Below, one piece after another: positions 15,701 to 44,225 of a DNA stretch of 64,000 bases. How positions within the stretch are numbered: the stretch's first letter is position 1; every line of letters begins with the position of its first letter. The position numbers were made by a program, and so were the translations under genes. Source of the DNA: a virus; the IMG/VR virus record IMGVR_UViG_3300031918_000006, positions 32,001 through 96,000 of that record; one strand, 5' to 3'. Under the pieces are notes generated by a model. It was not told where the DNA came from. It made no database searches and worked only from the letters and a program-made list of their open reading frames with translations.

Positions 15701-17945
15701 CTTTGGTTTAGAAGATGGAGAAAAACCTGATTTAAAATTCCTTATGGATATTAAAAACTCTGTATTCTATGGGGCAGGTGAAGATAAAATTATGGAAATC
15801 CTTAAAAATAAAGGAATTGATAATATTGATAGTTTAAAAGTAGTTGTGAGAGCTTCTATGTATAATCCTGTTACCGATACTGACAATTCTAAAGTTGTAA
15901 GTGGTAAAAGGGATGCTGATCAAGAGTTAACTACAAAAGATGTGTTTTTAAGGACGGCTTTAAGAATTGAACGTTCTGATAATACTGGAAAGTTATCGCC
16001 CTTTTATATTACTTTAGGTGTATTTTCTTCTCCTAAAAGTACTTCAAAATATGATTATAAAAATGATGCTAAATTAAGTGATGTACTTAAAGATGTTACT
16101 GCTAAAGCAGAATTAGCTTTAAAAACTTCACCTAGTGTTGATTTAACAATTAATCATAGTAATCCTCTTGAGTTATTAAAATATACTACTAATATTCAAC
16201 TTGATTATTTAGAAAATCCAATTAGTTTTAAAGATTTTAAAGAAGATCTTAGTAGATCAGCTGTAGTTTCTCCTATTCATATTTTTACTGGACATAACAG
16301 TGCAGTAGCAGGCAGTCCCTCACAAAATCAGAGATTAAATGAGTGGATTAAAAAGGGAAATAACTCAGCTAAAGAAAGATCATTGGCCGGGAGGGCAGTA
16401 GTATTTGTATCTTTTGATAATAATTTAAAGTCTAGTGAATTAGCAGATAAATTTGCAGAAGAGATTATGACTAATAGTCCTAATCCTAGAGTAAAAGCTG
16501 TGATGTTAAATTCTAAAGGAACTGATCCTAAAATTTGGTTCGAAAATGCTTGGAATACTTTAGCAGATGCTAAAAAGAAACCTACTGAAAGAGTTGCGAT
16601 GGGAACTTTAGCATCTCAACATATGGCTACTTTTATGGCTAGTACTATTAAAATGATGGCAGACTCTTCTAAATATACAGGAAAAACAGAGATCATTAAG
16701 ACTATTGCAAAGACTATAATTGAGAGACTTGGTACTGGTGAGGGTAATATGAATATTTTAGAAATAGATAGAAATGCAGAAGAAGCATTTAGATGTAAAG
16801 TTAAAGCTTATACGGATGATAAAATTAAAAATCCAGAAGAGTACTTAGCCTCAGCTGCTGCTGGTTATCTTAAATTAAAACCAAATCAAAGAATCTCTGC
16901 TTTTAACTTTAACCATACTTATAGATTATTAGTAGGCATGGGTATAGCAATGAATGGAGGTTTACACTCTGAAAGTGCAGAAGTTAAGCAGTATTTTGAA
17001 CCTATTTCTAAATATACAACTCAATATGGAGAATTTTTAGAAGAATTTTATAGTTTACTTAGAAAGGAATTTGTACATGGTATATTTTCACATCCTTCTT
17101 ATAATATTAGAGGGCCACGTACTAATAATGATTATGCTCAAATAGTAGAAAATGAAGAGGATGATTTTGAAGTAACAGCTCGTGCTACACTTCCTAATTC
17201 ACTTTTAAATCTTCAATTAGTTATGGATAATAAACAGTCTTTAAATAAAGAACAAACTGAAAAATCTAGAAATTTATCAAGTATCTCTGATTATATAACT
17301 TTAAGACAAAATAGTATGTCTACAGAAATGATTGAGGAATTTATTAGAGGAGCTGGTGCCATTAGAAACTTATATGATGTAGGAAAAGAAACCTCTGTTG
17401 CTGCAATTATGTCAAATATTGACGCTCTTTATGATAAATTATCAAAAGCAGTGTATACTACCTCTAATTTAATAGACGGTATTAATAAAATGCAATGGAC
17501 TAATACTGAAGTCTCTCAAAAAGATGTAAGTAATCCTGAGAATAAAATTCAGAATAATGGGGATGGTTCTTTTGTAGTTACAGGAAATAATGGTAAATTT
17601 GACTTCGAAATAAAATATAATATGAATGAATCAATCGAAGAAAATAAAATGAAAATCACTACTAATGAAAGACCTATTCCTTTAGAAGAAGTTGGTAACC
17701 TTATACAAAAAACTACTGATTTAGTAAATAAATTTAAAATGCAATACTCAGACATTATTCCTGAGGATATATTTGCAAATGTATTAAGTGCTCTATCAAC
17801 AGGAACAAGAGAAATAGTACCAGGAAGTGCAATGCAAATGGCATTTGCACAATTATCTGCACAAGCTCTTACATTAGATGATGAAGCATTACTAAAAACT
17901 TTACATGACTACACTAATACAAAAGACATCAATACTTGTAACTAA
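9789..17945 (+). CDS. Giant virion protein (2718 aa) with a central SF1 helicase-like domain
   Basis: Walker A GVPGAGKS, Walker B IFLDE, motif III GLGDSLQ, motif V VQGLEYD, motif VI YTLTTRSR; N-terminal hydrophobic segments. Confidence 0.75.
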   Translation: MENTKDTNDWVAANLALPGAPIEEFKQNNITPENTTLKDKDFYKGTKTIQETFTNPENGKFDDDKYNQFYNSMLFTYNEYANQDAVGKADKDFDYAPFDMFAPQNAKRVQDLYKIEKVRNPFKTKVGIEDFNYKSKPALSLEEIAQDNNVRDHLTGKVLDWTPNDDSATGIFDFLKRPTLVVGQYDEDGEHYDEFEGRKIKHRKGDYKLDADGKPYFETLGDREVYNREVLNWSDTLTKEGTWLNKYDFMDSDGLDKSHIGSVMKMAAKVTPLFIPGVGEIYAAGILGVDLMNVVPILLKAGIGSVIGDRDTDKDYWKTMNKVQGVGKTLSANSVSDYAKTSTFSFENISSMLGDVFTQLYTQRAIASIPKYIGMNKASVEPLKEVAEHFDDATIAKIFEGSLTTGERHMILEKVPEAANYIDRAVKSAKLSRALATTYMSATSAAGVADQAKAIGLDERDTGLLYLGTSLGFFGMMTSLPIGEWALKGIGLEETGLLVNRGIKDAAQPFVEDLKKLGSTMVKTPRDFQKIFKIGKAIGDAVGKKLSHVDGYLGAMASEGTEEVTEQVMQDSITNIYNGLASLGITSTQDPKKQFTYGDTSDIVANYAMNFFGGVAGGAMFRFHDQIANGSRENDESTKDIYWLIRNGYKDKLDAATNKLIQKGYFGSTTLTAEQVDIDLPGAGRKTVMRPKRDGDLSQNEVIGRTMLGLFNNVQNQIFQEGIQPDSALTRVLDARYDLIVKDLKVNSSLYEDHTALVNDILGLNNDIAKALAVPADLNSPESTVLATAESVNAMQIKLAEKREALKLITSGEAFPSYQSQALFNMSQVLNGAFGNTSADDLAWNKYKKHYRGLNETEKKDIDEEYVAWKAANKKDALKSGYRTFNFLNEKFSPRLAELAKYAEQRKGHYTLVDELGNKNKFNLSANTLAEISKSKSYLGKTLTVSEALNDAIKGKKDVNSILKAVDDIMGFVTNPSIDRLDKNFTNEMRDVFDGLTLNDLIGENASLFDTLSEDENFNEEGLPGTDYDLLSIDDLLNENLTSVFNKLDAAKLHNKDNQRALNTITKITSYILGNPNVNLMNSKKAEFEQAVHGRTINTLNELLDQFDFLQNGTKSTITQLLTNEFEALGKVNDINDYQIYNPNTIENLESAKVLLERLQALVIASTEYDHKKHGISGYNSIINNTFKGSQLGIITQEQATPLLKEIQQINAKIELFLTLSAFNKESKVKNNIASGINMETLFFGHLQEGSFRNMLDSLKIEEEEFITPDMAKSIEDAKTIKRSLEIKQSKEGELPSSDEEVFQFEAERLKINKVFFERVKELNLKYGEDKIHELLFNNTLAKQLFPVAQMSHATPTNFNTTTTQIQPLDLFIWWNTMVTEDPAEFYTELRGDETEPGKYDGIETSKYVPFYAQEYSAKIILSFLDNKSWINKSLNYLGGVDTEGAAITGTFMGKLHETFKNLVFVNGVPGAGKSSAVGYTVAKILKKRGKTFWTAGAYDTQAKQLETLLENPTANVSFNKTRLLAQFLIPEAVTEITNSNASCLGKGSMTDIVTKLAENKLIKLNRVVEKQEGKEYEKLKVGEIKPEAFLEINRSTLPAAIFLDEITHLSMIELEALRQSLIRLGEDAPLIIGLGDSLQNGFRIAGEDHNMDMFRTWNTPKLAGSLRTSNDLKNTNLINTVARYSMITEAYDKVFTEQSVDYAAVKANIESMHNPDDESTWYKLGHHTNEMGIVFGEKVSNALGVSKDLKNILDNTIGTVGFITDNNTSENEILSGLTPSQKSRLDIKSITDVQGLEYDHIVIDVDWNALAQDTPMGPLNFISNVYTLTTRSRVGSLILDRNFSTNNYLVVKSQEANQVIDVTLDKEILKKFKEKRVEDVTKLANFFEGTTSVTPKIKSKDVTPAILPVSATESFAQEIKRMDEEIEAAEAGNSSTNRQMPTLDLAQKNTHLMTYPYYERVGVPGEDALIFGLEDGEKPDLKFLMDIKNSVFYGAGEDKIMEILKNKGIDNIDSLKVVVRASMYNPVTDTDNSKVVSGKRDADQELTTKDVFLRTALRIERSDNTGKLSPFYITLGVFSSPKSTSKYDYKNDAKLSDVLKDVTAKAELALKTSPSVDLTINHSNPLELLKYTTNIQLDYLENPISFKDFKEDLSRSAVVSPIHIFTGHNSAVAGSPSQNQRLNEWIKKGNNSAKERSLAGRAVVFVSFDNNLKSSELADKFAEEIMTNSPNPRVKAVMLNSKGTDPKIWFENAWNTLADAKKKPTERVAMGTLASQHMATFMASTIKMMADSSKYTGKTEIIKTIAKTIIERLGTGEGNMNILEIDRNAEEAFRCKVKAYTDDKIKNPEEYLASAAAGYLKLKPNQRISAFNFNHTYRLLVGMGIAMNGGLHSESAEVKQYFEPISKYTTQYGEFLEEFYSLLRKEFVHGIFSHPSYNIRGPRTNNDYAQIVENEEDDFEVTARATLPNSLLNLQLVMDNKQSLNKEQTEKSRNLSSISDYITLRQNSMSTEMIEEFIRGAGAIRNLYDVGKETSVAAIMSNIDALYDKLSKAVYTTSNLIDGINKMQWTNTEVSQKDVSNPENKIQNNGDGSFVVTGNNGKFDFEIKYNMNESIEENKMKITTNERPIPLEEVGNLIQKTTDLVNKFKMQYSDIIPEDIFANVLSALSTGTREIVPGSAMQMAFAQLSAQALTLDDEALLKTLHDYTNTKDINTCN

Positions 17946-20900
17946 TGAGAAATAACTGCGGTTTAATATCAACGAACGCGTCCATCGAACTGATGGGCGT
18001 GTTTAATAATTTTATAAAAACACTCTATAAAAAAGGAGCAAAAAATAACTATGCAAGATTAGAGGATAAAATTGCAGAATATCTATATGACAAACATAGG
18101 AAAGACGACAAAAATGATGCTTTAACTCCTGAGGAGAGTCATTTTATTGAACAACAGTTTATTTTATATACAGCTGCTGTTAAACCTATTTTAACTAAAA
18201 GTAGAATAGATACAAAATTTGCAGAAAAAATATGGGGAGATTCTACAGCCGTTAAACCTATAGAATTGTTTTTGGCTGATGTACAGAAAGCATTAATAGA
18301 GGGGAGTGAAACTACATTAACAGAAAAAGTTAAAAATTTATATGAAGTTTCTCCAGAAGATACTTCTTTAATTCCAGCTCCTAAAGAAGAATTAATTCCA
18401 ACACCTCCATTAGAAGGTGAAACTAAAATTACTAAATTCACAGATATTAGTAATAAAATGGATTTAAAAGAAGTTTTTGCAAATGCAAATACTGCTTATT
18501 TATTATTAGAGAGAAGAGTTTCTAATCATATTGTTAGGAATTATTTAATCAATCAAGAAACAGGAGTGTATAACTCTTCAAGTAATTCTGTTGATAAATC
18601 TGTAAAAGCTAATAAAACAAGAATCTATAAAGAACTTATTAAGAATTTTGAGCAAAAGGGAATTAAATTTGTTGATAGTGAGAGAGATTATTACGTTAAT
18701 GGAAGAATTAATGATAACATTAAGAGTGTATTAGATAGAATTGCTGATTATTATAAAAAATATGATGGGACTGGTATAACTAATATCAAATTAGAAGAAT
18801 GGACACAAAATAATATAAATGAGATTTCTGATTTTATAAATTTTGTTACTATCTCTAACTTTGATAATTTGCTTTTATCTTATGGGAAAGGTATATTCAA
18901 AATTTCTGATAGTTACCTAAACTCAGCTAATGAAAAGTATGATGAACCTAAATATGTTTTAGATATTGCTAGTAATATCAATGATAGTATATTTCAAACA
19001 GGTGAATATAACTTATCTGATGAACAATCATCATTGTTTAAGATGTTTATCTCATCTATGCCTTCTGTTACATTTGATAAACAAGTTTCTCATGATAAAG
19101 AAATTGATTTGAATACTGTAAATACAGTAATGGCTAAATTATTACATGGAAATCTATTAGAAGGGGCTCCTATATATGATCCAACAAATAGTATGGAAAG
19201 TATGAAAGCTTTACTTGAATTTGCCATCAATAATTTTACAGGAGAAGGTAAAAAAATAAAGAGTTTTGATAAAATTGAAAAAGACACTTTACTCTCAGTT
19301 TATATGTACTTTTTCAGAAATAATGATGAACTTACTACTAAACATCCTAAAGTTCTATTAAATAACTCATTAAGATCAGCTATACAAGTAGCTTATGGTA
19401 ATGATACTGAATCTGGATTTAAAAATATCCCCTCATTTTATCATTTAGCCTCAAATAGTGAAGTTATTTCTGGGATGGACTACTTTAATGTTATAGTAAG
19501 TAACTTTGATAAAACATACTTAAATGAGTACACAGAGTATACCTACGATAAAGACCGAGGAACCATTACTGTAAATAGTCCTACTGAAAGATTAATTAAT
19601 AGTTCAGAAATTCAATTCACTAATAATTTAAATAATTTTATTAATCAAGAGTTTAATAAGACTTTCTTAGAAAATAGATATAAAGATGTTACTATTGAAG
19701 GTAAAGAGTCTGATATGCCTACAGTAAGATTTGAATTATCTAAAGGAGTATTTATTACAGCTAATTTAGCAAACGGTGGTATCTCAATTACAGATGGTAT
19801 TAAAACTACTGATTCTAAAGCACTTGATTTTAAAATAAGTCCTATACAAGAACAAAAATTAGTAGAAATTTTAAATAAAATCTTACCCCAATTACAATTA
19901 AGAGATGATAAAGGAAATGACTTTTATTATCCTCTTTTTACTCAAGTATTTTCTCCTACTCTGGATGATCATGTAGAAGCATTAACAGCTCTAGCTAAAG
20001 TGGCTGGATATGTAGCTTATACTTCATCTATGGTTAATGAAATAGGTAAAGATGGTTTATTAGGTAGTAAATGGATGAAAAATTTTGGAGCAGACAAGTC
20101 ACCTTATATTAAAGATGATGAGGAGTTTTCTATTGCCAGAATGTTTCCAGGTTATAGTGATATAGCTAAAAATATTGGTAAAGGACTCTCTATTATTAAT
20201 GGTGAAACACATAAAGCTGTAATTAAAGTAGGTAATGTTACTGTTCCTACAATTGGAGAAGTAAGACATTTATATGCTCTTCCTAAATGGAGGAATTGGT
20301 TAATCAAGCAAAATGGTAATAAATTAACTGGAATGCCTATTGCTAGTAATCTATTTATGAGAAATCCTGATTTTTTAAAAGGATTTAAAATTAGAAGTTT
20401 TGTAAAATCAGGTGATAATGTGAAACATTCCTCAGAGATGGCACCACTTGAAATAGCAACTACTTTCATAATGCATGACTATATAGCAGCTGCTAATAAA
20501 TACAATGAAGTTTACATTCAATCTACAGTATTCGCTGATAAAAATAGCCATAATAGTGTAGTTGTAAAACTAAATGAAGAAATTCAAATCCCAGGAATTA
20601 CTAATAAAATCTCTCTCTCAAATGTAACAGCTACTGAATTAAAACAAGCTGCTTTTTTGAATAATGCTACTTATTATAAAGCTATCTCAGATAAGTTAAC
20701 TTCTACTTATATACCAGTGCTACAGACTCTATTGCCTGGGACTACAATTGAATCTACTTTACAAGGAGTTCATGATGCCATGAGCAAAGTTCAAGAACAG
20801 GATTTTAGAAATGCTTTTTATAAACATTATAATGGAAGTGAGTATATTATTGAAGATTTAGGAATAGAAAAGAATAAAAAAGATGGCACATGTGGTTTAT

Positions 20901-23900: not shown

Positions 23901-25549
23901 CTGCAGAGTTAGGTTCTTTTTTAACTAAGAGATTTCCAGGAGAAAATATTGAGAAATTAATGAAGAATACCAAATTAGTAAACAATGCTTTACGAGTTAA
24001 TATTCAAAGTATTTTTAATAGAATTGATACTCAACATAATGTCTTAATTAACGGAAAAGAGTATCCAGTAGAAGTGTTAACACGTTCTTCTGGGGAAGCC
24101 ATTGGCCCAAATATTTATAGAACTATGTTTGACTTACCTAAGGGAACTTCAGTTAATCAAGTTACTGAAGATTTCTTATTTCAAAGAATGTATGATAAAT
24201 CTAAACCTGCTATCAATGATAAAAGTTGTTATGCTTACGTACAGAATCCAAATGGAAATCATATCTACATTTTTAATAAAGTTCCAACTGAATTTACAGA
24301 ATATACTCAAGGTAAACAGATAAAAGAAATTAATGGACAGTATTGGGTAGTAGATGGTAATGGTGATCCCAGATATATAGCCCCATCAGGTCTTACAGGT
24401 ACAGCACTTATTGGTGGAAAAAGAGTAGAAGTAATTGTCACTAATGATTTACCAAGTCTTCAAAAAACTCTTCAAGAGACTAAAAATTATGACAAAAGTT
24501 TACAAACTGGTAGAATTTATAATGTCAACGAAAATAATGATGCTATTCTTAAAGAAGAGTGTGCTATTCTAGCTAAAAAAAGATTTTCTAGTTTTAGAAC
24601 CACTTTAAATTATATTGCAGCACGTATTCCCGGACAAGGTTTCCAATCATTTACTGATTTAAAACTTGTAGACTTTATTCATACAGAAGGTAATACAGTT
24701 ATGACTAACCATTTTACTTCCTGGTTAAAAGGAGAGGATTATGATATTGATAAAGGATTCTGGCTTGGATTAACTCTTAAAAATGGAATTGTAGTAGGTT
24801 GGGCTAATGAATTTGATTATAGCTCAGAAGAATCTCTTATAGCTTCTATGTCTCTGCCTTATCCTGATAAAAAATGGAGAAGTTTAGACACAGAAGATAG
24901 TATTGATGATCCTGCAGAAGTTACACTTACTAACGAAGAAGTAGATAGCCTATTTGAAGAAAATATGTCCAAATTACGTAGTGATACTTTAGTTAAATTA
25001 GGTAATATTGATAATTATAATTTCTTAGGAGAAAATCACACAGCTTATGAAGTACAAGAAAAAGTTAATGAATACTTTATGCAAACTATACCTTTAAATG
25101 CTATGGAAGATGCTGTTAAGAATAAAATGGCTTGGGGTATTAGAGATGCTGTAGTTAAACCTGTAAACTTAAATCATACAGAGTCTCCTATTGGAATGGA
25201 AGAACTTAGAGATGAAGCCACGGAAGCTAATAGAGTTGTAAGTAATAATAATCCAATGAGTAAGGCTGATTTTCAATATGCAAACATGGTTGGTAAGAAT
25301 GTAATTGGTATTGCAGCTGTTGCATTAAAGATTTGGAGTGCTGCTTCTTTCTACGGAAATGATAAAGTAAAAAAGGGAGAATTTGCTTCTATATTAATGG
25401 ATAAAAATCTCAAAATTAACGGAAAAAATCGTTATATTGCGAGCCAAGCAAACCTTAACTTTAGTGCGAAGGCTTCTACTGTAATTACAGATGAATATAT
25501 TGCTGATCAAGTAGGTAAAAATAATATTGAGGAAAATTGTAATGGATAA
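17945..25549 (+). CDS. Virion-associated RNA polymerase, crAss-type two-barrel, catalytic part (2534 aa)
   Basis: ARIPGQGFQS followed by GEDYDIDK (DxDxD at ~24737-24751; compare DFDID of phi14:2 gp66); TDGSA motif in the upstream barrel region. Confidence 0.85.
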   Translation: MRNNCGLISTNASIELMGVFNNFIKTLYKKGAKNNYARLEDKIAEYLYDKHRKDDKNDALTPEESHFIEQQFILYTAAVKPILTKSRIDTKFAEKIWGDSTAVKPIELFLADVQKALIEGSETTLTEKVKNLYEVSPEDTSLIPAPKEELIPTPPLEGETKITKFTDISNKMDLKEVFANANTAYLLLERRVSNHIVRNYLINQETGVYNSSSNSVDKSVKANKTRIYKELIKNFEQKGIKFVDSERDYYVNGRINDNIKSVLDRIADYYKKYDGTGITNIKLEEWTQNNINEISDFINFVTISNFDNLLLSYGKGIFKISDSYLNSANEKYDEPKYVLDIASNINDSIFQTGEYNLSDEQSSLFKMFISSMPSVTFDKQVSHDKEIDLNTVNTVMAKLLHGNLLEGAPIYDPTNSMESMKALLEFAINNFTGEGKKIKSFDKIEKDTLLSVYMYFFRNNDELTTKHPKVLLNNSLRSAIQVAYGNDTESGFKNIPSFYHLASNSEVISGMDYFNVIVSNFDKTYLNEYTEYTYDKDRGTITVNSPTERLINSSEIQFTNNLNNFINQEFNKTFLENRYKDVTIEGKESDMPTVRFELSKGVFITANLANGGISITDGIKTTDSKALDFKISPIQEQKLVEILNKILPQLQLRDDKGNDFYYPLFTQVFSPTLDDHVEALTALAKVAGYVAYTSSMVNEIGKDGLLGSKWMKNFGADKSPYIKDDEEFSIARMFPGYSDIAKNIGKGLSIINGETHKAVIKVGNVTVPTIGEVRHLYALPKWRNWLIKQNGNKLTGMPIASNLFMRNPDFLKGFKIRSFVKSGDNVKHSSEMAPLEIATTFIMHDYIAAANKYNEVYIQSTVFADKNSHNSVVVKLNEEIQIPGITNKISLSNVTATELKQAAFLNNATYYKAISDKLTSTYIPVLQTLLPGTTIESTLQGVHDAMSKVQEQDFRNAFYKHYNGSEYIIEDLGIEKNKKDGTCGLSPLLIYYTEMYTDKSKTTPAFTKMMKANELLFAKSLNSYNMNIEYMDGKGSLNPLFIRKGTSTIFDTLKIADEKTGDRITKENFEKNWVDPSTKYLTIYKGGELNPLLRHYFYMDNYISENLSQASMGTIHNHPFKGKAKAKPGTFEFFTEIESAKTAAMYKRQLQGTPMKPLNLNLINGVRETMSSVFLTDINNPVYTSFGIKDKMTVTDGSAQVTPLQYILQNNSLLENSVGPNAKMFSLFMDPKYNSYGLTKYAEFGITNEMIQNSKGSTYDLMNLIEKSYRYKPFTRSITIEEFNPNTFDYDKTLVQYTPDILKDFKGNNITIETIAPNGLFYVKNDQVYEIKSLTRGTTITQPSGEVIVAKGESNDFQVQAINLTTGMAEVPKSVKINDLFDLWQALGAENSVSIDKEGQYSGSRNPGETLNFTESDASHYALAEFVNRVGHKMDSNQKVNLINKYGLRDLSDPHTNAIYSKETEANFVKLFPEFKVNKTDFKVHNQTNTWQPLKAMFIGKYIHTSAQKSGAINVHNIDDVYNQTKPIYPVDVPAISTGLLMTTEHEVEGSEITKMTQIYSAIEFMGDSHNVSSGVYNAIADVLNIKLKSLFDATEFQNVNKEALYKEVTDNLIRTFNSKDQQSIGKFIGQMVERNSDEIKAFTAQAKEAEAITEDATGEEPGVASTMSMSIVRDGKRMPFSTYMYSSFISLMSNFLNKEAIKDKQSGIASPIKPSGGMLQVYDSEDINGKKDVLLRKNYDKLNAAENIVEAPITIGEISLNDWVRESDGKTMKEYQVNTPEKLIALKRKDTGESVPVQTFKGFWTRGTVQNDTNNVYLFGDNTNDRMVTKYIPGATQAVIRGLPNAIGIDTKRDRGTTSKSFLTDADLPWFKSHVDEQLKKAQALGKPIILPEDGIGTGKAMLKEKAPALFAYLNEALSKLETTKPSKVKFVKLYGKPRDLQPPLLTFKVIGKGMKESPMSIYELPDFAMVYDYKEILEDKKPMTAELGSFLTKRFPGENIEKLMKNTKLVNNALRVNIQSIFNRIDTQHNVLINGKEYPVEVLTRSSGEAIGPNIYRTMFDLPKGTSVNQVTEDFLFQRMYDKSKPAINDKSCYAYVQNPNGNHIYIFNKVPTEFTEYTQGKQIKEINGQYWVVDGNGDPRYIAPSGLTGTALIGGKRVEVIVTNDLPSLQKTLQETKNYDKSLQTGRIYNVNENNDAILKEECAILAKKRFSSFRTTLNYIAARIPGQGFQSFTDLKLVDFIHTEGNTVMTNHFTSWLKGEDYDIDKGFWLGLTLKNGIVVGWANEFDYSSEESLIASMSLPYPDKKWRSLDTEDSIDDPAEVTLTNEEVDSLFEENMSKLRSDTLVKLGNIDNYNFLGENHTAYEVQEKVNEYFMQTIPLNAMEDAVKNKMAWGIRDAVVKPVNLNHTESPIGMEELRDEATEANRVVSNNNPMSKADFQYANMVGKNVIGIAAVALKIWSAASFYGNDKVKKGEFASILMDKNLKINGKNRYIASQANLNFSAKASTVITDEYIADQVGKNNIEENCNG

Positions 25550-28049
25550 AGGATGTATACATACATACAAAGGCGTAGAATATAGGAATTATCAAGATTT
25601 AAAAAATGCATTAATTGAGGAGCAGAGTAGTCACTACTTTGCTCCTTTTATGGCTGCAGTTTTAGAAAAATTAAAGAATAATCCCGATATAACGGGCGTG
25701 CAAGAGATTGAAAAGGTCGTGAAAGAAATTTCTGATCAATTTATGTTGAAAGAAGATGTTAGTTTAACTTTGAGTCAGTTATTAAGTGCTGCTACTGATA
25801 ATGCTAAAGAATTAATCTTAGCTAAAATTAATGCAGGACCTGAAACTGCTGGAGTTTATGCATACTTAACCATGTTAGGAGTTCCTTTTAAAGAAATTGC
25901 TCAAATGATGAAGAGTGATGCAGTTAAATGGGTTATTGAGAATTCTCGTAAAAATATTTTTGATAAACAAACTGATTTTAATAGTATTAAAAGTTCTATT
26001 AAAGAGTTTGAAAATGGCCCTAACGTATATAAATATTTAGATTTTGATAGGGCCAATATTTTTTCTAATATTCTAAGAGATAGTTTAAAAAATAGTACTT
26101 TTTTAGGAGCACTTCCTTATGGTAATATATTTAAAGATCCCGAAGTAATTAAGATTCTCTCTAATACTGATAAAAAGAAAGGCCCAGTCGTAAAAATGCA
26201 TTCTATAGGTGCTTTAATGTCTCCTATAGATATTACAAGTAAAGTTGGAGATACAATAGTAACTAAATCTTTAGATTTTAATATTTCTAGAGAAGATATT
26301 AGTGAATTTTACAAAACTTTGCAAGAAGGTAATTTTATAAAAGAGTCATATGAACCTGTAGTTAATAAATATACAGAAGACGAGGATATGGATATGGGTT
26401 GGGAAGATGGTGAAATTAGAAGTAATAAAATTCCTGTAAAAATTGAGGTATCTAGATTTATACAAAAAATGATAGAATATTTAGATAAAGCTCCAGAAGG
26501 AGACATATCTGAATTTGCTAATATTATGGAAGATTCAAAAGAAGTTCTTATCTTAGGTAGAATGCTTTCTATAAATCAAGGTATTAAAACTGATAGTTAC
26601 TCTCAATATGCTTTTTTTCAGAGAGTTACTGATTATATAATTGAAAAAAGCAAAGGTAAAATGTCTTTAGAAACTCCAGAGAAAATGATGTCTGAGATGA
26701 TGGAAGAAATGCCTACTCATAGAGTAGACCCTAAATTTTTAGAAGAAGTTATGAAAAGATTCGATTTTAAAAAATTTTTAGGGATAGGTTTAACACAAGA
26801 AGACGCTACTATTTATAGAGAAACTAGTAAATTGTGGTATAATAAGATTAAATCCTCCTTTAATATTTTAGCTATTGTCTCTGATACTCCCCATTTTAAT
26901 GCAATGCTAGGAGTTTCCTCTTTAATGGAAAATATGAAAAGCATGCTCTCAGTTAAAGCAAAATTAGTTGATAAATTAATTAAAGATGTTTATGATAAAC
27001 ATATTATAGCTTCAGATTTAACTGAGGAACAGATGGAGTATAAAACAATTGCTGATAAGGACTATTTTAAAATTATGGATTTTGCAAATGATTCTATTAT
27101 ATTAAAGTGGATTCGTTCTTTAGACGACTCTAAGAGAATTTTTGCACATGATTCAAATACTTATCACACTATTGTTGATAATAAGATTGTTAAAGTTACT
27201 GAAGAAAATAGGGAGAGATATCCACGTAAAATTGATGTTAGTAGTGCTGAGGGAAGACTAGATTTTATAGACATGGTTCATGAGATGATGTCTGTGTTAA
27301 AAGATGGAAAATTCTTAGTTAATGGTGAGTATAAAGAACATCCTCTTCTAAAAAACAATGCTTTTATACATTCATTCGATATTGATAAGAAAAGAGATCC
27401 TTTAACTGGTAAAAACAATAAGTTCTATAAGCTTCCTATGAATATATTAAATGTAAATGAAGCTAATACTCATAAGTTTAATAGTTACTTAATTGGATTT
27501 TCAGACTTAGCTAAAATTGAGTATAATGGAGTTAATATACAGAATTTATTATTCTTATATAATACTTTTATTCACAGGGATAAAATTAATAGAGACTCTT
27601 TAACAAAATTGTTTGAATCTTCTACCTCTGGTATTGAACATACTATGATGGGTGATTTTATTAAATGGGCTGGAGATTTTGATTGGAATGAAAAAGAATT
27701 ACAATCTTTATCCGAATCTAAAGAGTATGATTATGATATAGACGATATTATAATTAAAGGATTGGCTACTAAGATCTTCTCAAAAAACTTGGATAGAAAT
27801 GTAGGAAAATATGCTTATGCAGTCTTGTATAATGCTTCTACAGGAGAGTCTACAAAGCAATATTATGAGTGGAACAATAGTGCTAGTACTTATCAAAAAT
27901 ATGATCACTTTAGTAGTGATTTAGCAATAGCTTCTAGTGCGGGATCACAAATTGGAGTACAAAGAGGAAATGCAAATGACTTTAATGCTACTTTAAGAGA
28001 AATCTCAAATAGAGGAATAATAATAAACAATGTAAAAATAGAATGTTAA
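25542..28049 (+). CDS. Probable C-terminal part of the split virion RNAP (835 aa from ATG 25542)
   Basis: LSQLLSAATDNAKELILAKIN resembles the segment I recall following the catalytic motif in crAss RNAPs; ATG overlaps the upstream stop (ATGGATAA). Confidence 0.6.
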   Translation: MDKGCIHTYKGVEYRNYQDLKNALIEEQSSHYFAPFMAAVLEKLKNNPDITGVQEIEKVVKEISDQFMLKEDVSLTLSQLLSAATDNAKELILAKINAGPETAGVYAYLTMLGVPFKEIAQMMKSDAVKWVIENSRKNIFDKQTDFNSIKSSIKEFENGPNVYKYLDFDRANIFSNILRDSLKNSTFLGALPYGNIFKDPEVIKILSNTDKKKGPVVKMHSIGALMSPIDITSKVGDTIVTKSLDFNISREDISEFYKTLQEGNFIKESYEPVVNKYTEDEDMDMGWEDGEIRSNKIPVKIEVSRFIQKMIEYLDKAPEGDISEFANIMEDSKEVLILGRMLSINQGIKTDSYSQYAFFQRVTDYIIEKSKGKMSLETPEKMMSEMMEEMPTHRVDPKFLEEVMKRFDFKKFLGIGLTQEDATIYRETSKLWYNKIKSSFNILAIVSDTPHFNAMLGVSSLMENMKSMLSVKAKLVDKLIKDVYDKHIIASDLTEEQMEYKTIADKDYFKIMDFANDSIILKWIRSLDDSKRIFAHDSNTYHTIVDNKIVKVTEENRERYPRKIDVSSAEGRLDFIDMVHEMMSVLKDGKFLVNGEYKEHPLLKNNAFIHSFDIDKKRDPLTGKNNKFYKLPMNILNVNEANTHKFNSYLIGFSDLAKIEYNGVNIQNLLFLYNTFIHRDKINRDSLTKLFESSTSGIEHTMMGDFIKWAGDFDWNEKELQSLSESKEYDYDIDDIIIKGLATKIFSKNLDRNVGKYAYAVLYNASTGESTKQYYEWNNSASTYQKYDHFSSDLAIASSAGSQIGVQRGNANDFNATLREISNRGIIINNVKIEC

Positions 28050-28050
28050 C

Positions 28051-31000
28051 ATGGCATGTACACTAACGTTCACTTTAGGTGGAATAAAATATAATATACC
28101 TGCAGAAGGTAATCTTGCTGATTATGACGGAAAAAACCTCACAGATATATTAGGATCTTTAGATTCTCATACACAAATTAATTTATTAGAGAATATTTTA
28201 AAATATTCTAACATTCAGCCGTATGATTATGAAGAAAATCCAACTGTAACTAATTTAATAGCTTCTAATAATATTCCGAATATTAGTGTAAGCAAGTTAA
28301 CAGAAAAATTAGGAGATTTAGTTTTACCTGATGGATCTAATCATTTTAAATTACGTCAAGTAGTTTTAAGTATGTTAAATGAAAAGACTGATAAAATATC
28401 TTTAGTTTCTGCACAAATCACAGATGGTTCCAAAAAAGGACATGGAGTATTTATTTCACAAACTGGAAGTATCTATGTGCATGCTAAACCTAATGATAAA
28501 ATTGATACTCTTGAGGATTATTTTTTAGGAAAGGATAGCAAAGTCTTACTAGAACGTCTTGCTCATGAATTAACTCATAGTAAATTAGATGCATTAATGG
28601 TTAATCAACCAGAACTTGCCAAGGAATTAGTTGAGGAATGGAATTCAAAAAAAGGAGGATTATCTGATGAATTTAAGAGTATTAAAAGTAGTATTGACAA
28701 GTTAAAAACAAATGAAGCAAAAGCAAACGAAATTATTGCTTATTACTTTAGTGATTTCCAATTACAAGGGGCTTATCAAAGTAAAACACTAGAAGATGCT
28801 TTTAAAAGTATGGTTTCAAATATAATTCCATTAGAAACAATAGTTTCTACTTCTACTCCTGGCTATTTTGATTCTTCCAATCCATATGAGGATTATGACC
28901 ATTCTAGATATAAGAATCATTGGGATGATCCTGTTTGGCAATATAGACATCCTGAATTAGAACCTCCATTCACAGGAGATACTAATGCTTCTCTTCAAAA
29001 AATGGTTGCAGAGATAGATCCAACTTCTGAGAATTACCAAGCAGATAAAGCTAAACAAATCTTAGCTAGATTTAATGCTAATACCTCTGATATTCAAGAA
29101 AATTCTGAATTTAAATACCAGAAATATGATGTTTCTTATGGAGCACCTATTGTTATTGATGATTTTAATAGAGATATTCAAATCTTAAGATTAGCAGAAA
29201 ATGACTTGGTATTAGTAAGTAAAGATATCTTCCTAAATCCCAAAACAAAAGAATGGGAAGCTAGGCCTACTAAAAAAGGTGAGGAAAAGTCTTCATATCG
29301 TCCTGTTATTAGTACTTATATTAATGCTAATAATGAAGTAATGATTAATCTACCTATTAAAGATGGTAGTGGTAAAACATATTCTCTACCAGCTAAGTTT
29401 GTAGAAAGTTTACGTAAATATGATGGAGATTTAATAGATACTCCTTATAATAAAGAAAAAGCTAAAGAATATGCAGATTGGATGGTTGCTAATGTAAATT
29501 CAGCATATGGTGATGATCCTGCCGATAGTTCTATAATTAGAACTATAGATATTACTTCTAAAACTGGAAAAAGCTTTCAAATTTCAGTGGCTTCTAACTA
29601 TGAATCTTATGGATTTAAATTTTATAACCAAGAATCTGCTAGAGAAATCTATGATGGAGCTGAAGTTGGAGATGTAGTTAAAGTGTTTATAAAAGAAAAA
29701 GGAGATAAGAAAGCGGGAGGATATCGCGCTAAAATACTACGTAAATTTGGAAACTCAGTTGAAGTAGTTACTTCTAAAGGTGCTGTACTTATTGTAAAAC
29801 CCTCTGCTATCAATGAGGTAATCTATTTAAAAGAAAATCATCCAGACTTTTTATCACAAGTAGAAAATATTGATAAAGGGACTATTAGCCAAGATCTTAT
29901 TGATGATGGTAATAGTCAATTTAGAAAATATCGTAAAGTAAATTTTGTATCACAAAATAAAAAAGATGGGGAATTTCAAGATAAGATTAATGATTATTTT
30001 GATATTTATTCAAAAGAAGATTCTGCTATTAAAGTAGAGAGACGTCGCGCTGAAGTTAAAAAACTTAAAGCCGGAGATCTTATAAAGGTTAAATGGTATT
30101 ACACAGATACAAAAACTAAAGAAGATAGAGAAGTGTCACACTGGTATCCAGTAGTTACTAAAACCTCTGATTTAGTTTACTATTACAATTCTACTTCTGA
30201 GAAAGTATCTTCTGTGAATATTTTAGATGGTAAAGGATATGAAATCTATGGATTAGCTATAAATAATACAAATTCTTCTAAATTATTTGATGAATTTAAT
30301 GAAATCAGAAAAAGTATAGAAGGATTACGTAGAGATGATACTGGTACATTACTCTCAGATGATGCTATTAAAAATAACTTAGGAGAAGCTCTTAGAAATG
30401 CAGAACCATCTAGTTTACAAGACATTTATCATATCACAGAAATAGAAGATGTAGATGAAGTAGCAGCTGGAGAAGATAATGACCTTAAATTATCAGTATC
30501 TCAAGTACAAAGAGGTAGTATTGTTAAAGCCTATGTATTTGATATAGATGAAGAAGGTAGAGACAAAAAAACTAAAATTTATAAATGGTTTGTAGTAACT
30601 GGCTTTGATGAAAACACTGGAAGACCTATATGTGTTACACAAACTAAAGATAAAAATGGTAAAACTGGTGTATATAAAGAATATCCAATTGAATTTCAGA
30701 ATATTAAAGCAATAGGTCATAGATTAACTGATAATGCTGATTTAGGAATTTATGGAAATAAAACTCTAAAAGAATACTTAGATAAGTTAAGAAAAACTTT
30801 TGATACTATTAGTGAACCTATTTTTATTACTCAAGCTGAAACTCCTAAATATGAGAGATCAAATAGAACTTTTAACACAGCTTTATATGGTTTACTTAAA
30901 AACGGAAAGATGGGTTATGCAGTGTCTGATAAATATGTAATAGAACAATTTAAAGATAAGACTGATTTTGAAGAATGGAAGAAAAATACACCAGAAGCTA

Positions 31001-32235
31001 AAGGATTAACCTGGACTTATACTGAACCTAAGTTGTATATTTTAAGAGGTAAACAATATATGAAGAAACTCTATATGAATTACTTAGAAGTACACGGTTT
31101 ACTTAATTATGAACCCAACATACATGATAGTGTAAGAATTGGTGATATAGTTACTGAAACATGGAAGTACCAAGGAGATGATGTTAAAATGGACTCTATG
31201 ATTACTGCTAAAACTCCTACAGGATTATGGGTGGAACGTTTAGGAAAAAGTCCTTCAGGGGATTCTATTTCGGTTAGAAAAAAGATATATAGACATAGAG
31301 AAGGAGTTGAATATCCTCAGATCTCAGATGTATACTTACATAAAAAACGTGATACTACCTCAACTTCTAGAGAAGACGCTAAAAGTAGACAAACTAATCT
31401 TTTAATTGGTAATACTCAGTATGAAGAGAAGATTAAAAATCTAGATCAGGAAACTAAAGAAAGAAAAGCAAGTACTTTAAAAAAACCACTTAAAGCTTCT
31501 TTAGATACTGATAATTTCTATAAGAGTAGAGATTCGGAAAGTAAGATTATGGAAATTGTAGATAAACTACAATCTACTTATAATGTGCCTATTATAATGC
31601 TTAGAACTAATGAGATTGCTCAAAGTTTTGGTGATATTTTAGGAACTGATGCTACTAAAGTTAGAGGATTTATAAATGAGGGTAAAGTTTATATAAATTT
31701 AGATAAAGCTTCTTCTGCAGAACCTCTACATGAGATGGCACATATTATATTAGAGAGTATTAAAGCCAATGACTATAATTTATATCAAACGGTTATTAAT
31801 TCTGTTAAGTCTCATCCATACTATGATGCTATAGCTAAAAATTATCCTAATAGGGCCCCGGAAGACTTAGATGAAGAAGTATTTGTTTCTATTTTTGGAG
31901 AAAAATATAGAACAGTTACTCATAATCAATATAATAAGTCTTGGTATGATCAAAATGAAAGTATATTTACAAATATCTGGAATTATATGAAAAATACTTT
32001 TGCTTCTATTTTTGACAATAAATCTATCTTGGATATTCCAAATGAAAAGCTTGCTATGATGCCTTTAGACGAATTAATTAGTACCTTTGGGGACAATTTG
32101 ATGGAAGGTAAATTTAAACACGTTTTAAATTATGATACATCAACTCTTGAGAGAAAAGTGACCAATTTAAAGACAAATCTTTTATCAAATGAAGATGAAT
32201 CAGAAAGTTACCTTAGAAAAACTTGTAATACTTAA
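28051..32235 (+). CDS. Giant polyvalent virion protein with two zincin-like HExxH domains
   Basis: LAHELTH (~28564-28578) and LHEMAH (~31729-31743), each preceded by beta-strands (GSIYV; GKVYIN) and followed by a downstream Glu (ANEIIA; DEEVF). Confidence 0.7.
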   Translation: MACTLTFTLGGIKYNIPAEGNLADYDGKNLTDILGSLDSHTQINLLENILKYSNIQPYDYEENPTVTNLIASNNIPNISVSKLTEKLGDLVLPDGSNHFKLRQVVLSMLNEKTDKISLVSAQITDGSKKGHGVFISQTGSIYVHAKPNDKIDTLEDYFLGKDSKVLLERLAHELTHSKLDALMVNQPELAKELVEEWNSKKGGLSDEFKSIKSSIDKLKTNEAKANEIIAYYFSDFQLQGAYQSKTLEDAFKSMVSNIIPLETIVSTSTPGYFDSSNPYEDYDHSRYKNHWDDPVWQYRHPELEPPFTGDTNASLQKMVAEIDPTSENYQADKAKQILARFNANTSDIQENSEFKYQKYDVSYGAPIVIDDFNRDIQILRLAENDLVLVSKDIFLNPKTKEWEARPTKKGEEKSSYRPVISTYINANNEVMINLPIKDGSGKTYSLPAKFVESLRKYDGDLIDTPYNKEKAKEYADWMVANVNSAYGDDPADSSIIRTIDITSKTGKSFQISVASNYESYGFKFYNQESAREIYDGAEVGDVVKVFIKEKGDKKAGGYRAKILRKFGNSVEVVTSKGAVLIVKPSAINEVIYLKENHPDFLSQVENIDKGTISQDLIDDGNSQFRKYRKVNFVSQNKKDGEFQDKINDYFDIYSKEDSAIKVERRRAEVKKLKAGDLIKVKWYYTDTKTKEDREVSHWYPVVTKTSDLVYYYNSTSEKVSSVNILDGKGYEIYGLAINNTNSSKLFDEFNEIRKSIEGLRRDDTGTLLSDDAIKNNLGEALRNAEPSSLQDIYHITEIEDVDEVAAGEDNDLKLSVSQVQRGSIVKAYVFDIDEEGRDKKTKIYKWFVVTGFDENTGRPICVTQTKDKNGKTGVYKEYPIEFQNIKAIGHRLTDNADLGIYGNKTLKEYLDKLRKTFDTISEPIFITQAETPKYERSNRTFNTALYGLLKNGKMGYAVSDKYVIEQFKDKTDFEEWKKNTPEAKGLTWTYTEPKLYILRGKQYMKKLYMNYLEVHGLLNYEPNIHDSVRIGDIVTETWKYQGDDVKMDSMITAKTPTGLWVERLGKSPSGDSISVRKKIYRHREGVEYPQISDVYLHKKRDTTSTSREDAKSRQTNLLIGNTQYEEKIKNLDQETKERKASTLKKPLKASLDTDNFYKSRDSESKIMEIVDKLQSTYNVPIIMLRTNEIAQSFGDILGTDATKVRGFINEGKVYINLDKASSAEPLHEMAHIILESIKANDYNLYQTVINSVKSHPYYDAIAKNYPNRAPEDLDEEVFVSIFGEKYRTVTHNQYNKSWYDQNESIFTNIWNYMKNTFASIFDNKSILDIPNEKLAMMPLDELISTFGDNLMEGKFKHVLNYDTSTLERKVTNLKTNLLSNEDESESYLRKTCNT

Positions 32236-32245
32236 AATAATATAA

Positions 32246-35200
32246 ATGAGTAAATGTAAATTCACCTTAACAGTAAAAGGTAATAATATAGAATTTGATA
32301 CTGAAGAACAATTAAATTCATATCTTAAAACCAATTATGACACTCTTTCTAGAGGTCATATTGGCGGAGATGTGGAATTATCTACTGTATTAGAAGGGAA
32401 AGAAAAGACAAAATTAGAACAAACTGTGGCTAAATTACAAACCATTGCTTCAAAGACTCCTGAGATAACTACTGTAGAGTTTAACGAGAATGGTGAGAGA
32501 GTAATTAAATCAGCCTATGAAGGTGTTACTAAAAGAATAAAGCGTCTTGCAAAAGCCGGGGGATTACCTGTGACTTATTATGATGAAAAAAATTATATTG
32601 ATAATAGATTGATTCAAATACGAAGCGCACTTCGTAGGGGGGTAGGTCCGGAAACTTTAAAGGCAGACTATGCTAATATTATCTCTAAATTTACCACAGG
32701 AGTTGAGCAATTAAAAGGAGCAGAGTCTGAAACTTATGATAAGCTAACTAAAGCTCTTATTATGCCTTTAATTATTAAAGAACAGGCACAAAGAAAATTA
32801 TTGGGAACATTTGGAACAAACTTACATAGAATGGCAGAGACATACTTTGCAAACAGATTAGAAAACTCAGATAAGTCTTTTTCCATTGGTAATTTCCCCG
32901 CAGGTATTACAAATCTTTCTACAGAAGGAAAAGAAAATTATTTACAGTATTTAAAAGAATTAACTAACTTTTTAAAGTCAGAACATGGAGATGATGTAGT
33001 TCTTCTCCCAGAATATAAAATATTTGATGATGCTACCAAATTAGTAGGAATTATTGACTTATTAGCAATAGATAGTATGGGTAAAGTTCATATTTATGAC
33101 TTTAAAGCCTCATATAAAGATCCTTCTGATTGGCATTCAGCTAAACAGATTGAATTTAAATATCAATTAGGCATTTATTCTAATATGTTGAAAAATAAAG
33201 GATTTGATGTACGTGGAATACAGGTTTTACCTATTACCATGCTTGATATTAATTTTGATGATGAAACTATTCCAAGATTAGCCGAACATCTTCCTTTTGA
33301 TGCAAGTCCCTCTGAAGATATTAAATATAATATCAATAATAGTGTTATTCCTTTAACAACTGCTGCTTTCTTTGAATCTACATCTAATAGTCATGCTATT
33401 ATCACTGAAAATCTAAAAAAGGCTTGGGGATACAATTTAAAATTAAAATCATCCTACGCTAATGTTCAAGCTTTTAAAGATAGTAGTAGAGTTACAACTG
33501 ATATAAATAAACCTGGAGTATTCACTTTCTGGGATAATATTAAACGTAAGTTTATTGATAATACTGCTGAGAGTTTAGATAAAAACATTGAGAATTACTT
33601 AAAATCAGAAGCTGAGGCAACCTCTTCTGAGTTACTCCGTTTTAAAGATTGGATGATTGCCTCTATTGCTGGGAAAAAACAACTTATAGACTTCAAAAGA
33701 AGAAGTGAGATAGGTAATATTCATATGGTAAGAGCTTTTGAAAAATATACTAAAGGAGGATGGACTTTAGTTGCAGATGATGCAGATCTAGATAGTTTAG
33801 GACTTTTAATGTTTGTAAATGAATCTAATAAGTCCGTAGAATTTGTATCTTATACAGTAAATGCTTTAAATAAAAAGGTTAAACTTCCAATTGGTTCTAC
33901 TATAGTAGGAAACTTTATTTCTGATGGTAAAGGACTTGAATTACCTGATTTATTACCAGCTACAAATGGCAACATAGAATTATTAAAGACTTATTTCTAT
34001 ATTAATGAAAATGCAGAAAAATTAAAAGATTTTACTGTAGGTAGAGTTATGGCTTATAATCCAATTAATTCTGAATTTGTAGTATATAACAATGATGTGC
34101 TTAAAACTAATTTTGGATATTTAATCTCTAGATTAGAAGGTAAAAATACAACTTTAGAAGTAAATACTACTGATAAATTATTAGCTCTTCATAATCAATT
34201 TGTTGAAATTATAACTGAACCTTCTACTTCACAATCAGAAAAAGATTTAGTGAATAAATACTTAACCACTTTAAATGATTACCAGAACACTGGCCGTATG
34301 GAGAGTCTTAAAATTATACAAAAAGATTTACATATGTTATTGAACAAATATGGTCAACATAAAGTAAATAGTTTTATGTTATTTGAGGAAAAACTCTATG
34401 GTATGATCAGTGAGGCTATTGTAGCAGAAGCTGACTTAAGAATTTCTACCTCAGAAAAAGATATTCCTAAATATAGTGCAAATGGTACTATGCTTTCTAA
34501 TCCTGGAAGTATTGGCTCTCGTAATTTACGTGTATTTGTGGATGTAATTAAGTTATCTATGCATAAAATACGTAGAAGACAAACTGAATTCAAAGCAACT
34601 AACGTTGAGATCTTTGATAAGTATCTAACTTCTAAAGGAAAAACTAATTTACGTAGAGCTACTGTTGGAGACAACATTAGGGCTTATGATTCTTTGTTTG
34701 AGGGAAATTCTCCTAATAAAGAACTTATTTTAAAGAATCCATATGATAAAAATACTCCACTAAATAATGAGGAAAGAGAATTTTTAAAGTATTTCTTAAA
34801 AGAAATTAATTTTAGAAGATTTAACACTCAATCTCTTGATTCTGAAACAGCTCAAGACATGATTTCAAGTAAGGAATGGTTTAAATTGCCTTTATTAAGA
34901 GCATCTAGTTCTTCAAAAGCTTCTAATATGAGTCTTAAAGGATTAAGAGATGCTACTACAGAAAATTGGAATAGTTTCTTAAATACTAATCACTTATTTG
35001 ATGAGAAAGATGAACAAGCTGTAAAAAACAGAAGTGAGGATATGTTTACTATGTTTAATGAGTTTAATTTTCATGCACATCCTGATGCTCGTATGAAATT
35101 GATCGAGCAGCAGAGTCCTAATGCATTTGAAACTAATTTAGAGAGAGTTTTAGACAATTTTGTATTTTCCGCTATTAGAAAAGAAGAATATGATGACATG

Positions 35201-36682: not shown

Positions 36683-36712
36683 AGCCCCTTAGAAATTTCT
36701 TTCTAAGGGGCT
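36683..36712. terminator. Bidirectional terminator between the convergent gene blocks
   Basis: AGCCCCTTAGAAA-tttc-TTTCTAAGGGGCT, 13-bp perfect stem, with an A-run on the left and a T-run on the right. Confidence 0.9.
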
Positions 36713-36719
36713 TTTAATT

Positions 36720-37406
36720 TTATGAGGAAAACATTTTAAAATATTCAGTGATTGAGGTACCTAAAGCATCTACAAAACCTTTTTTAGCTCGATCTGAATG
36801 TTTAGTACCATCAAACCAATCTTTTACTGTACCTGTGCCAAGTAAATGAGCTGCAGCAGCCATTCCATTCTCTGTAATTGGTATTCCTTTGAAACTAGTG
36901 CCTATATACTTCAAGTAAGGGGTCAACTTTTTAAGATTAATAGTTTTATAATTCAAAGCAGCATTATGTTGTGCATTTAAATCTGTATCATAATCTTGAG
37001 CAAGAATACCCACAGTTTTTAAACTATCATCATTAAATTGATATAGTCCTCTGTAAGATCCTTGTGTAGCAGTAGGTATTAAAGAGGATTCTCTTAATCC
37101 TAATTTATATAAATAGTCTTTATTATACTCAGAAGTAGGTAACTGCTTTATTGATTGTATACTCTGTTGGACAGTTGGATTATTGGTATTAAAAGGGACT
37201 TTTTTCTTTACAGGATAAGGAGTTTCTTCAGTAGGTCCATCTATTTCAGTCGATCCACCAGCTATTCCAGGTAATCCTGCCATAAAGTCCATATATTCTT
37301 TTAAATAAGGAGAGGGTTCTGGTATAGTAGAATCTATGCTTGTGGGTTTCACACCATTACGATAATTATTGATTTTTTCTTTAGAGGATTGATTAAGTAG
37401 GTCCAT
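36720..37406 (-). CDS. Lysozyme-like / lytic transglycosylase domain protein
   Basis: LGLRESS (catalytic Glu), YRGLYQF and AAAHLLGTG motifs. Confidence 0.7.
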   Translation of the reverse strand: MDLLNQSSKEKINNYRNGVKPTSIDSTIPEPSPYLKEYMDFMAGLPGIAGGSTEIDGPTEETPYPVKKKVPFNTNNPTVQQSIQSIKQLPTSEYNKDYLYKLGLRESSLIPTATQGSYRGLYQFNDDSLKTVGILAQDYDTDLNAQHNAALNYKTINLKKLTPYLKYIGTSFKGIPITENGMAAAAHLLGTGTVKDWFDGTKHSDRAKKGFVDALGTSITEYFKMFSS

Positions 37407-43760: not shown

Positions 43761-44225
43761 TTAAATTAACGGGATTGAATCCCCATATTTTTTATTAAGT
43801 GCTTTATTTATACCATCCAGAATTACTCTTGTTTCTGGGGTTACTCCGTCTACACTTGTAAGACGAAACATTTTTTTCCATTCATATTTAGAACCACTTA
43901 CATAAAAATCTGTTCTTATCCCTAGTGGTAAAATTTTGAAGGCTATTTTAGGGGAAACCCCTGCTGCAATCAAACTGAAGTAATTAACTTCTGCTGCTGC
44001 ACATCCATCATGATATATTAATTCTGCTAAAGAATTTTCTATCATAGTTTCAGGAGTGATGATAGAGATTTCATCTGCCCTAATATCATCTGAGATTGTT
44101 TTAACTTCTATATAAGAACTTATTTCTCTACAAACTAATGCATCACTAGTTATTGCAACTATTATGTTATCAGTCTCTCTAGATAATAAATCTATAATTT
44201 CAAAATGTGGTGTTATATATTTCAC
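43761..44225 (-). CDS. Degenerate ThyX-like protein
   Basis: AEVNYFSLIAAGVSPKIAFKILPLGIRTDFYVSG..YEWKKMFRL resembles the ThyX C-terminal half, but the RHRxxS motif is absent. Confidence 0.55.
   Translation of the reverse strand: MKYITPHFEIIDLLSRETDNIIVAITSDALVCREISSYIEVKTISDDIRADEISIITPETMIENSLAELIYHDGCAAAEVNYFSLIAAGVSPKIAFKILPLGIRTDFYVSGSKYEWKKMFRLTSVDGVTPETRVILDGINKALNKKYGDSIPLI

Follow-up and report, generated by a model that had tools for sequence, protein, structure and literature searches.

Paired terminal cysteines between consecutive giant proteins of a crass-like phage suggest a head-to-tail tether

Among the phages of the human gut, crassviruses are the most abundant. The structural atlas of phage crAss001 leaves the question of how about 1 MDa of protein, their own RNA polymerase included, is packed and delivered by them. 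This article describes a computational analysis of five consecutive giant open reading frames (ORFs), named P1 to P5, on the + strand of a 64,000-nt stretch of virus record IMGVR_UViG_3300031918_000006 (positions 32,001-96,000 of a viral contig of 115.6 kb; hereafter the window), whose products carry a cysteine (Cys) on both sides of every junction. According to the original prediction, made from this DNA alone, these terminal Cys join separately translated proteins head to tail.

In crAss001 virions, gp47, gp49 and gp50 were detected by mass spectrometry (MS) and assigned to a cargo zone of the capsid. The cargo proteins are predicted to be folded and helical and were argued to need partial unfolding for exit through the tail, and inter-subunit disulfides were reported in tail and portal-vertex proteins, with no mention of cysteine in the cargo proteins (PMC10172136). 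Neither cysteine nor disulfide is mentioned in the preprint on the virion RNA polymerase of phage phi14:2 (bioRxiv 10.1101/2020.03.07.982082). A disulfide linking two internal proteins was observed by cryo-electron microscopy in the cyanopodophage A4 (Anabaena phage A-4L), where Cys1715 of gp27 is bonded to Cys5 of gp26 within a pentameric pre-ejectosome (PNAS 2025, PMC12002296), and it was not put forward as a general rule (PMC12002296). In the A-4L record gp27 (1717 aa) has its sole Cys at position 1715, in the terminal NPCQF, and gp26 its sole Cys at position 5 (MSKHCGL). Among the N4-like phages (Schitoviridae; DEV gp71-gp73, N4 gp50-gp52), the Cys content of the ejection operon is 0.00075% as against 0.865% for the proteome (PMC11445570).

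Terminal cysteines in the window and its relatives

P1 (9789-17945; 2718 aa, 303 kDa) has Cys at 1544, 2336 and 2717, the last of these being the second-last residue (codon 17937-17939; the protein ends in INTCN), and none at its N-terminus. The next protein, P2 (17945-25549; 2534 aa), has Cys at 5 (17957-17959), 983, 2095, 2206 and 2532 (25538-25540), followed by P3 (25542-28049; 835 aa), which has just two Cys, one at position 5 (25554-25556) and one at its very end, Cys835 (28044-28046). P4 (28051-32235; 1394 aa) has Cys3 (28057-28059), Cys861 and Cys1392 (32224-32226), and P5 (32246-36676; 1476 aa) has Cys4 (32255-32257), Cys1095 and Cys1169, its C-terminus being free of Cys. At each junction, then, one Cys is among the final three residues of the upstream protein and another at residue 3-5 of the downstream one, and the outer ends of the series, the N-terminus of P1 and the C-terminus of P5, have none. 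Translation gives 16 Cys over the 8,957 residues of the five proteins, with 8 at the four junctions, and a summed mass of 1,013 kDa. The original prediction had counted by hand about 16 Cys in about 8,950 residues, 8 of them terminal, and had described the eight paired codons, the two-Cys protein of 835 aa, the Cys-free outer ends and a chain of about 1 MDa; all of this agrees with the translation.

The Cys content is 0.18% in the giant proteins and 0.92% in the window's remaining 33 ORFs, where residues 2-8 never include a Cys. With that 0.92% as background rate, the chance of finding Cys in the last 3 residues and in residues 2-5 at all four junctions is approximately 9e-13 (about 1e-12).

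The rule is conserved beyond the window. A database search with P3 returned 120 homologs with identities down to ~20%, of which 107 have a Cys within the last 6 residues, most of the exceptions looking truncated; the column of Cys835 is invariant in the 38 sequences of alignment A1. By means of this alignment 80 related IMG/VR loci of ~22 kb were retrieved, and all junctions between large + strand ORFs were tabulated in these loci and in the window. Among the 61 distinct tight junctions whose flanking ORFs reach 300 aa or more, 58 have both Cys and 3 have neither, and a single Cys never occurs (0/61). The three Cys-less junctions lie upstream, outside the chain, two of them in the window (between ORFs of 1364 and 605 aa, and between the latter and P1). 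For P4 a family alignment was built from syntenic loci; a word-based protein search gave 4 matches, P4 being fast-evolving. Cys3 and Cys1392 are invariant in its 17 syntenic homologs (alignment A2). Cys3 is likewise present in each of three other homologs from the database, as is a Cys among the final 3 residues. In locus L006, with proteins of 3425, 1585 and 1457 aa, the sole Cys are residues 6 and 3425 of the first, 4 and 1585 of the second and 4 of the third.

Two loci were recorded as particular cases. At L009:12180 the P4 homolog apparently starts with GTG (reading MSNCKIFIKYKVGG), and a rule that admits ATG only loses its N-terminal Cys. In L020 (2088-2976 and the next ORF) the pair QCSNG / MANIC lies between ORFs of 295 and 1157 aa in a block that is organised differently, and chain membership may therefore differ between lineages.

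Cultured crassviruses follow the same rule. In crAss001 the sole Cys of gp47 (2341 aa) is at 2339 and that of gp49 (1349 aa) at 5, and gp50 (2412 aa) has three, at 5, 1334 and 2404; the gene for gp47 lies on the strand opposite those for gp50 and gp49. The Cys-bearing terminal peptides are CNS of gp47, CITTNSTIEELAAK and ICGANTLYEL of gp50, and CAIIPQVR of gp49. The phi14:2 proteins gp078, gp077 and gp076 (1797, 2180 and 1421 aa) hold 4 Cys altogether, namely the last residue of the first, residues 3 and 2179 of the second and residue 3 of the third; the middle protein has the motif DFDID, and all three are annotated in GenBank as virion proteins by MS.

The polarity of the outer ends bears on whether the Cys serve to join different proteins at all. 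Each protein might instead close on itself, its N- and C-terminal Cys forming a disulfide within the molecule, or form homodimers through like ends, which would protect the termini and produce no chain. P2, P3 and P4 do have Cys at both ends, and the splitting of a gene would likewise yield new termini needing a Cys. However, an N-terminal Cys (first 10 residues) occurs in 0/85 P1 homologs, with a Cys among the final 8 residues in 68 of them and among the final 12 in ~82, and a Cys in the last 10 residues occurs in 0/54 P5-type proteins from 8-9 lineages at <50% identity. A single Cys is also all that crAss001 gp47 and gp49, phi14:2 gp078 and gp076, and A4 gp27 and gp26 possess, and in A4 the link between different proteins is seen directly. 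Self-closure is thus very improbable.

Still less credible is that the Cys codons are the by-product of a nucleotide signal at the junctions, serving coupling, frameshifting or read-through, or of sites resembling those of inteins or lipoproteins. The genes are tightly coupled, with stop and start codons overlapping or 1-10 nt apart, and the four window junctions (a TAATG overlap, an 8-nt overlap, a 1-nt spacer and a 10-nt spacer) represent ordinary coupling of this kind. Yet over the window and its relatives the stop/start offsets range from -11 to +10 in various frames, no common nucleotide motif was found across the four window junctions, where both TGT and TGC serve as Cys codons, and the pattern persists in crAss001, where gp47 is encoded on the other strand. 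This last arrangement rules out a translational or nucleotide-level cause and makes gene order inessential, so that the joining in gene order of the original prediction is not a requirement: the first protein of crAss001 is encoded on the strand opposite the other two.

Protein-level processing was considered and rejected. A split intein has an N-terminal part of ~100 aa, beginning with Cys, at the end of the first protein and, at the start of the second, a C-terminal part of ~35 aa that closes with HN and precedes a Cys. No Hint or intein domain is detected here by Pfam, the Cys lie 0-5 residues from the protein ends and not ~100 or ~35 residues in, and, as regards trans-splicing, the residues around the junction Cys are simply absent from fused homologs (see below). 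For a lipobox, a Cys at position 3-6 comes too early to be preceded by a signal peptide.

A virion RNA polymerase divided between two genes

P2 and P3 together are the virion-type RNA polymerase of this phage, P2 representing the N-terminal three quarters and P3 the C-terminal part. P2 contains the catalytic-type DxDxD motif GEDYDIDK at residues 2263-2270 (DYDID at approximately nt 24737-24751) and a DUF7831 domain at residues 1800-1917. In a local hhalign comparison residues 2222-2667 of the joined P2+P3 matched residues 1439-1803 of crAss001 gp50 with a probability of 93.6% (E 2e-7). GEDYDIDK is aligned on GSDFDVDK of gp50 (DYDID on DFDVD), and the alignment crosses the P2|P3 break at 2534|2535; the P3 family profile (A1) by itself matched gp50 1654-1801 (84%, E 7e-6). 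Since the match runs across the break, the polymerase of the window has been split in two genes at a site internal to gp50.

This split and its counterparts in other lineages permit the terminal Cys to be followed through natural fusions and fissions. In many relatives P2+P3 is one protein of 3069-3425 aa. When nine such fused homologs were aligned with the window, the junction residues NIEENCNG / MDKGCIHTYKGVEY fell in a gap in 9/9 with no Cys there, which answers the check proposed with the original prediction for fused neighbours, and the far N-terminal and far C-terminal Cys were aligned in 10/10 sequences, the window included. Two of the nine fused proteins have no Cys besides these two. 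The converse event is found in the L041 lineage, in which the P4-type protein is split into 333 and 549 aa and a new pair, RKGCE / MACINH, is present at the break; near that position Cys is missing from nine unsplit homologs, in an alignment that is only ~20% identical. The pair thus comes and goes with the polypeptide break.

Interruptions of another kind occur within the catalytic motif itself. In many relatives the polymerase ORF is broken after GSDY and resumes with DIDKAYIMGLSFD (DIDKAYIMG...), as in L005, L011, L021, L033, L009 and L045, all of which break at DYDID; in L005 the gap in the motif (8408-8995) contains two Rfam group I introns (RF00028). P2 of the window is continuous through this site (GEDYDIDKGFWLGLTLKNG). 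Distant P3 homologs in the protein database that start with MG[LQ]SFDxNG and have no Cys were considered as counter-evidence and set aside as an artefact, being ORFs that begin mid-polymerase, right after DYDID. The terminal Cys pair can serve as a practical annotation rule, marking true protein ends as opposed to intron-broken ORFs.

Judged by remote homology and position, P1 to P5 are probably a divergent crass-like counterpart of the RNA-polymerase-associated cargo block formed in crAss001 by gp47, gp50 and gp49. General searches returned little: megablast of the block against phage records gave no match, tblastn with P3 gave a single match, to one unannotated record, PHROGs and Pfam found nearly nothing on P1-P4, and searching PDB sequences with the P3 profile, P4 and P5 yielded no meaningful match. 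Homologs of P1 carry helicase-like (superfamily 1) P-loop Pfam domains (PF13604, PF13245), and no similarity of P1 to crAss001 gp47 was detected. The P1 family has a conserved N-terminal signature, M-x(2-5)-[NH]DW[FLI]-x-A (window 9789-9850, homologs P0126-P0209), in which Cys is never present; it might direct the head of the chain to packaging or to docking on the portal. In P4 the motif HExxH occurs twice, at residues 172 (28564-28578) and 1227 (31729-31743); H1227, E1228 and H1231 together with E1275 and E1276 are invariant in the syntenic homologs of alignment A2, which suggests a zincin-like metallopeptidase domain in this putative cargo protein. An HExxH is likewise present in crAss001 gp47, at residue 2157. 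P5 includes at residues 186-341 (32801-33268) a PD-(D/E)XK nuclease domain (Pfam PF12705, E 4e-6; PHROG 298, exonuclease), and its residues 1338-1391 gave a weak BLASTP match to the C-terminal part of crAss001 gp49 (1180-1231).

A candidate tether and its alternatives

The reading that we favour, and consider likely, is a head-to-tail tether of consecutive cargo proteins, most probably by disulfides. Each polypeptide break would carry a clasp made of a C-terminal tail, in which 0-2 residues follow the Cys, and an N-terminal segment whose Cys is at 3-5, the latter resembling an amphipathic beta-hairpin at three of the four window junctions. The tail of one protein would dock on the head of the next and the two Cys would form an inter-chain disulfide, so that P1-P2-P3-P4-P5 would lie in the capsid tied head to tail as a 1.0-MDa chain of fixed order and 1:1 stoichiometry. 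Interiors would be kept nearly free of Cys, like those of other ejected phage proteins, allowing the intended bonds only, and the reducing cytoplasm of the host would open the links after ejection. The clasps predicted from the window alone have strong comparative support, in that the Cys pairs co-occur, outer ends are Cys-free and pairs are lost on fusion and gained on fission; a disulfide is what the identical pattern forms in A4 (PMC12002296).

The N-terminal segments and a read-through model give weak support to docking by beta-strands. In 46 distinct N-termini of the non-polymerase type, positions +2, +4 and +6 after the Cys are ~80% hydrophobic, N or G dominates at +7/+8 and F is the most frequent residue at +13, which gives statistical backing to the C-[beta-strand]-G-x(2-4)-[YF] pattern originally seen in the window. 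The polymerase-type N-terminus (P2, gp50 and that like A4 gp26, MxxxCG/I) obeys, on sequence, another pattern. In an AlphaFold2 model of P3 alone (helical, pLDDT, the predicted local distance difference test score, 67.5) residues 1-21 and 825-835 are unstructured (pLDDT <50). A read-through fold was also made, with the block alignment, for the P3-to-P4 junction of L011, where the stop codon TAG directly precedes ATG and was read as Q. In this model the C-terminal tail forms a strand (193-200), followed by a two-residue turn and by the N-terminal segment as strands 203-212 and 215-222, at pLDDT 71-76; the same tail in P3 alone is coil (pLDDT ~40). From the strand limits Cys199 may face Cys204, and the fold hints at beta-strand complementation. 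Neither the P3 model nor the read-through model matched a PDB structure in Foldseek at E <= 0.001.

Several observations weigh against the tether. The read-through fold is biased, its two halves being joined covalently by one residue. The placing of P1-P5 in the virion is itself an inference from remote homology and position, and A4 shares no homology with the polymerase (see below). The crAss001 atlas leaves the cargo proteins unresolved (PMC10172136), and no disulfide, complex or co-migration has been seen for any crassvirus cargo protein. No thiol oxidase was found in the window. The disulfides seen in virions of crAss001 and A4 may have arisen once these were released or while they were being purified. 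Moreover, the hosts are anaerobes with a reducing cytoplasm, in which the formation of such a bond is hard to place.

This setting would be workable for a metal-bridged clasp, in which the two thiolates, perhaps with Asp, Glu, Asn or copies from neighbouring chains, hold Zn or Fe. The comparative pattern would look the same for such a bridge, gut crassviruses infect anaerobes, and the residues that follow the C-terminal Cys are frequently E, DE or N. Nevertheless, each junction has two Cys only, with no conserved His or further Cys adjoining them, and the one solved example, A4, was modelled as a disulfide; we consider a metal bridge improbable.

A more serious alternative concerns not the bond, which would be the same, but its purpose alone: disulfides may staple a folded, multi-copy internal core resembling a pre-ejectosome, for assembly, stoichiometry and DNA spooling, and not a linear thread. 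The gp27-gp26 disulfide of A4 lies in a pentameric ring around the portal axis, and the P3 model is folded and helical, as crAss001 cargo is predicted to be. On the other hand, the crAss001 reconstructions contain a low-density cargo zone only and no ordered core, and up to five giant proteins with strict polarity of their ends exceed what a two-protein staple requires. We regard a folded core as a possibility to be taken seriously, albeit an unlikely one.

If true, a conserved head-to-tail tether would account for the fixed stoichiometry and order of the cargo, for the near absence of Cys from the interiors and for the freedom of the genes to split and fuse. A bolder form of the idea, which we put forward tentatively and hold to be doubtful, is that the clasp is a portable kit by which giant ejected proteins, the catalytic polymerase included, can be cut into genes and rejoined into a covalent thread of ~1 MDa, which would be packaged via the conserved N-terminus of the first protein, pulled through the tail in chain order and freed as active enzymes by reduction.

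Surrounding genes and comparison with known systems

The chain appears to end where its operon ends. Directly 3' of P5 there is a terminator-like hairpin (36683-36721, both strands) with a 13-bp GC-rich stem (hairpin 36683-36712) and T runs on each strand, placed between P5 and a convergent minus-strand gene (36720-37406), so that it resembles a two-way terminator. The layout resembles that of a crassvirus, with replication genes convergent on the opposite strand, and an ORF upstream (3-1481) shows a weak match to the C-terminal domain of the crassvirus muzzle protein (PF25729, E 6e-4, below the family cutoff). The two large ORFs that precede P1 on the + strand (1364 and 605 aa; 3875-9787) contain no Cys and stand outside the clasp chain; their positions match those of the crAss001 cargo proteins gp45 and gp46, to either of which no similarity was detected. 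An ORF of 143 aa (3378-3809) ends in MSKKC in front of the Cys-free 1364-aa protein (MGQVPK...); its terminal Cys is unpaired, lies outside the chain and is probably due to chance. On the minus strand the flavin-dependent thymidylate synthase Thy1/ThyX is apparently split, the N-terminal part of the domain lying in an ORF of 343 aa (44918-45949) and the C-terminal part in an ORF of 154 aa (43761-44225); they are ~690 nt apart with small ORFs between them, and no Rfam intron was found between them at E <= 0.1.

The N4-like phages eject a giant virion RNA polymerase with its partners into the host, as is proposed for the window, and their strong suppression of Cys is like that in the interiors of P1-P5; their proteins have no terminal Cys pairs, however, and their polymerase, a single polypeptide, belongs to a different family. 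The cargo blocks of crAss001 and phi14:2, whose giant proteins were detected in virions, have a DFDxD-type motif and the same terminal-Cys rule, but these comprise three proteins and two junctions, as compared with five proteins, four junctions and a polymerase that is itself split. The window is in fact the richest case met, its polymerase being broken in a region that is continuous in other phages.

With A4 the likeness lies in the junction. The start of gp26 (MSKHCGL) resembles the window starts MRNNCGL and MSKCKF, the proteins are internal, ejected proteins of a podovirus and poor in Cys, and a Cys in the last few residues of one is followed by a Cys near position 5 of the next. A4 differs in having one junction where the window series has four, in lacking a polymerase, and in that its C-terminal element is a long helix lodged in a cleft of its folded pentameric ring. 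No homology of P2+P3 to A4 gp26, gp27 or gp28 was detected (hhalign probability at most 0.5%; no BLASTP match), hence A4 counts as an analogue, kinship being unproven. The original prediction knew of no comparable description; this stands insofar as no account of a terminal-Cys rule for Crassvirales was found in the literature, and has to be amended for the one junction of A4, from which this kind of link is already known. No description was found in the literature of a series of three to five giant proteins chained in this way across Crassvirales, of its strict polarity or of the coupling of the Cys pair to fission and fusion, a split polymerase included.

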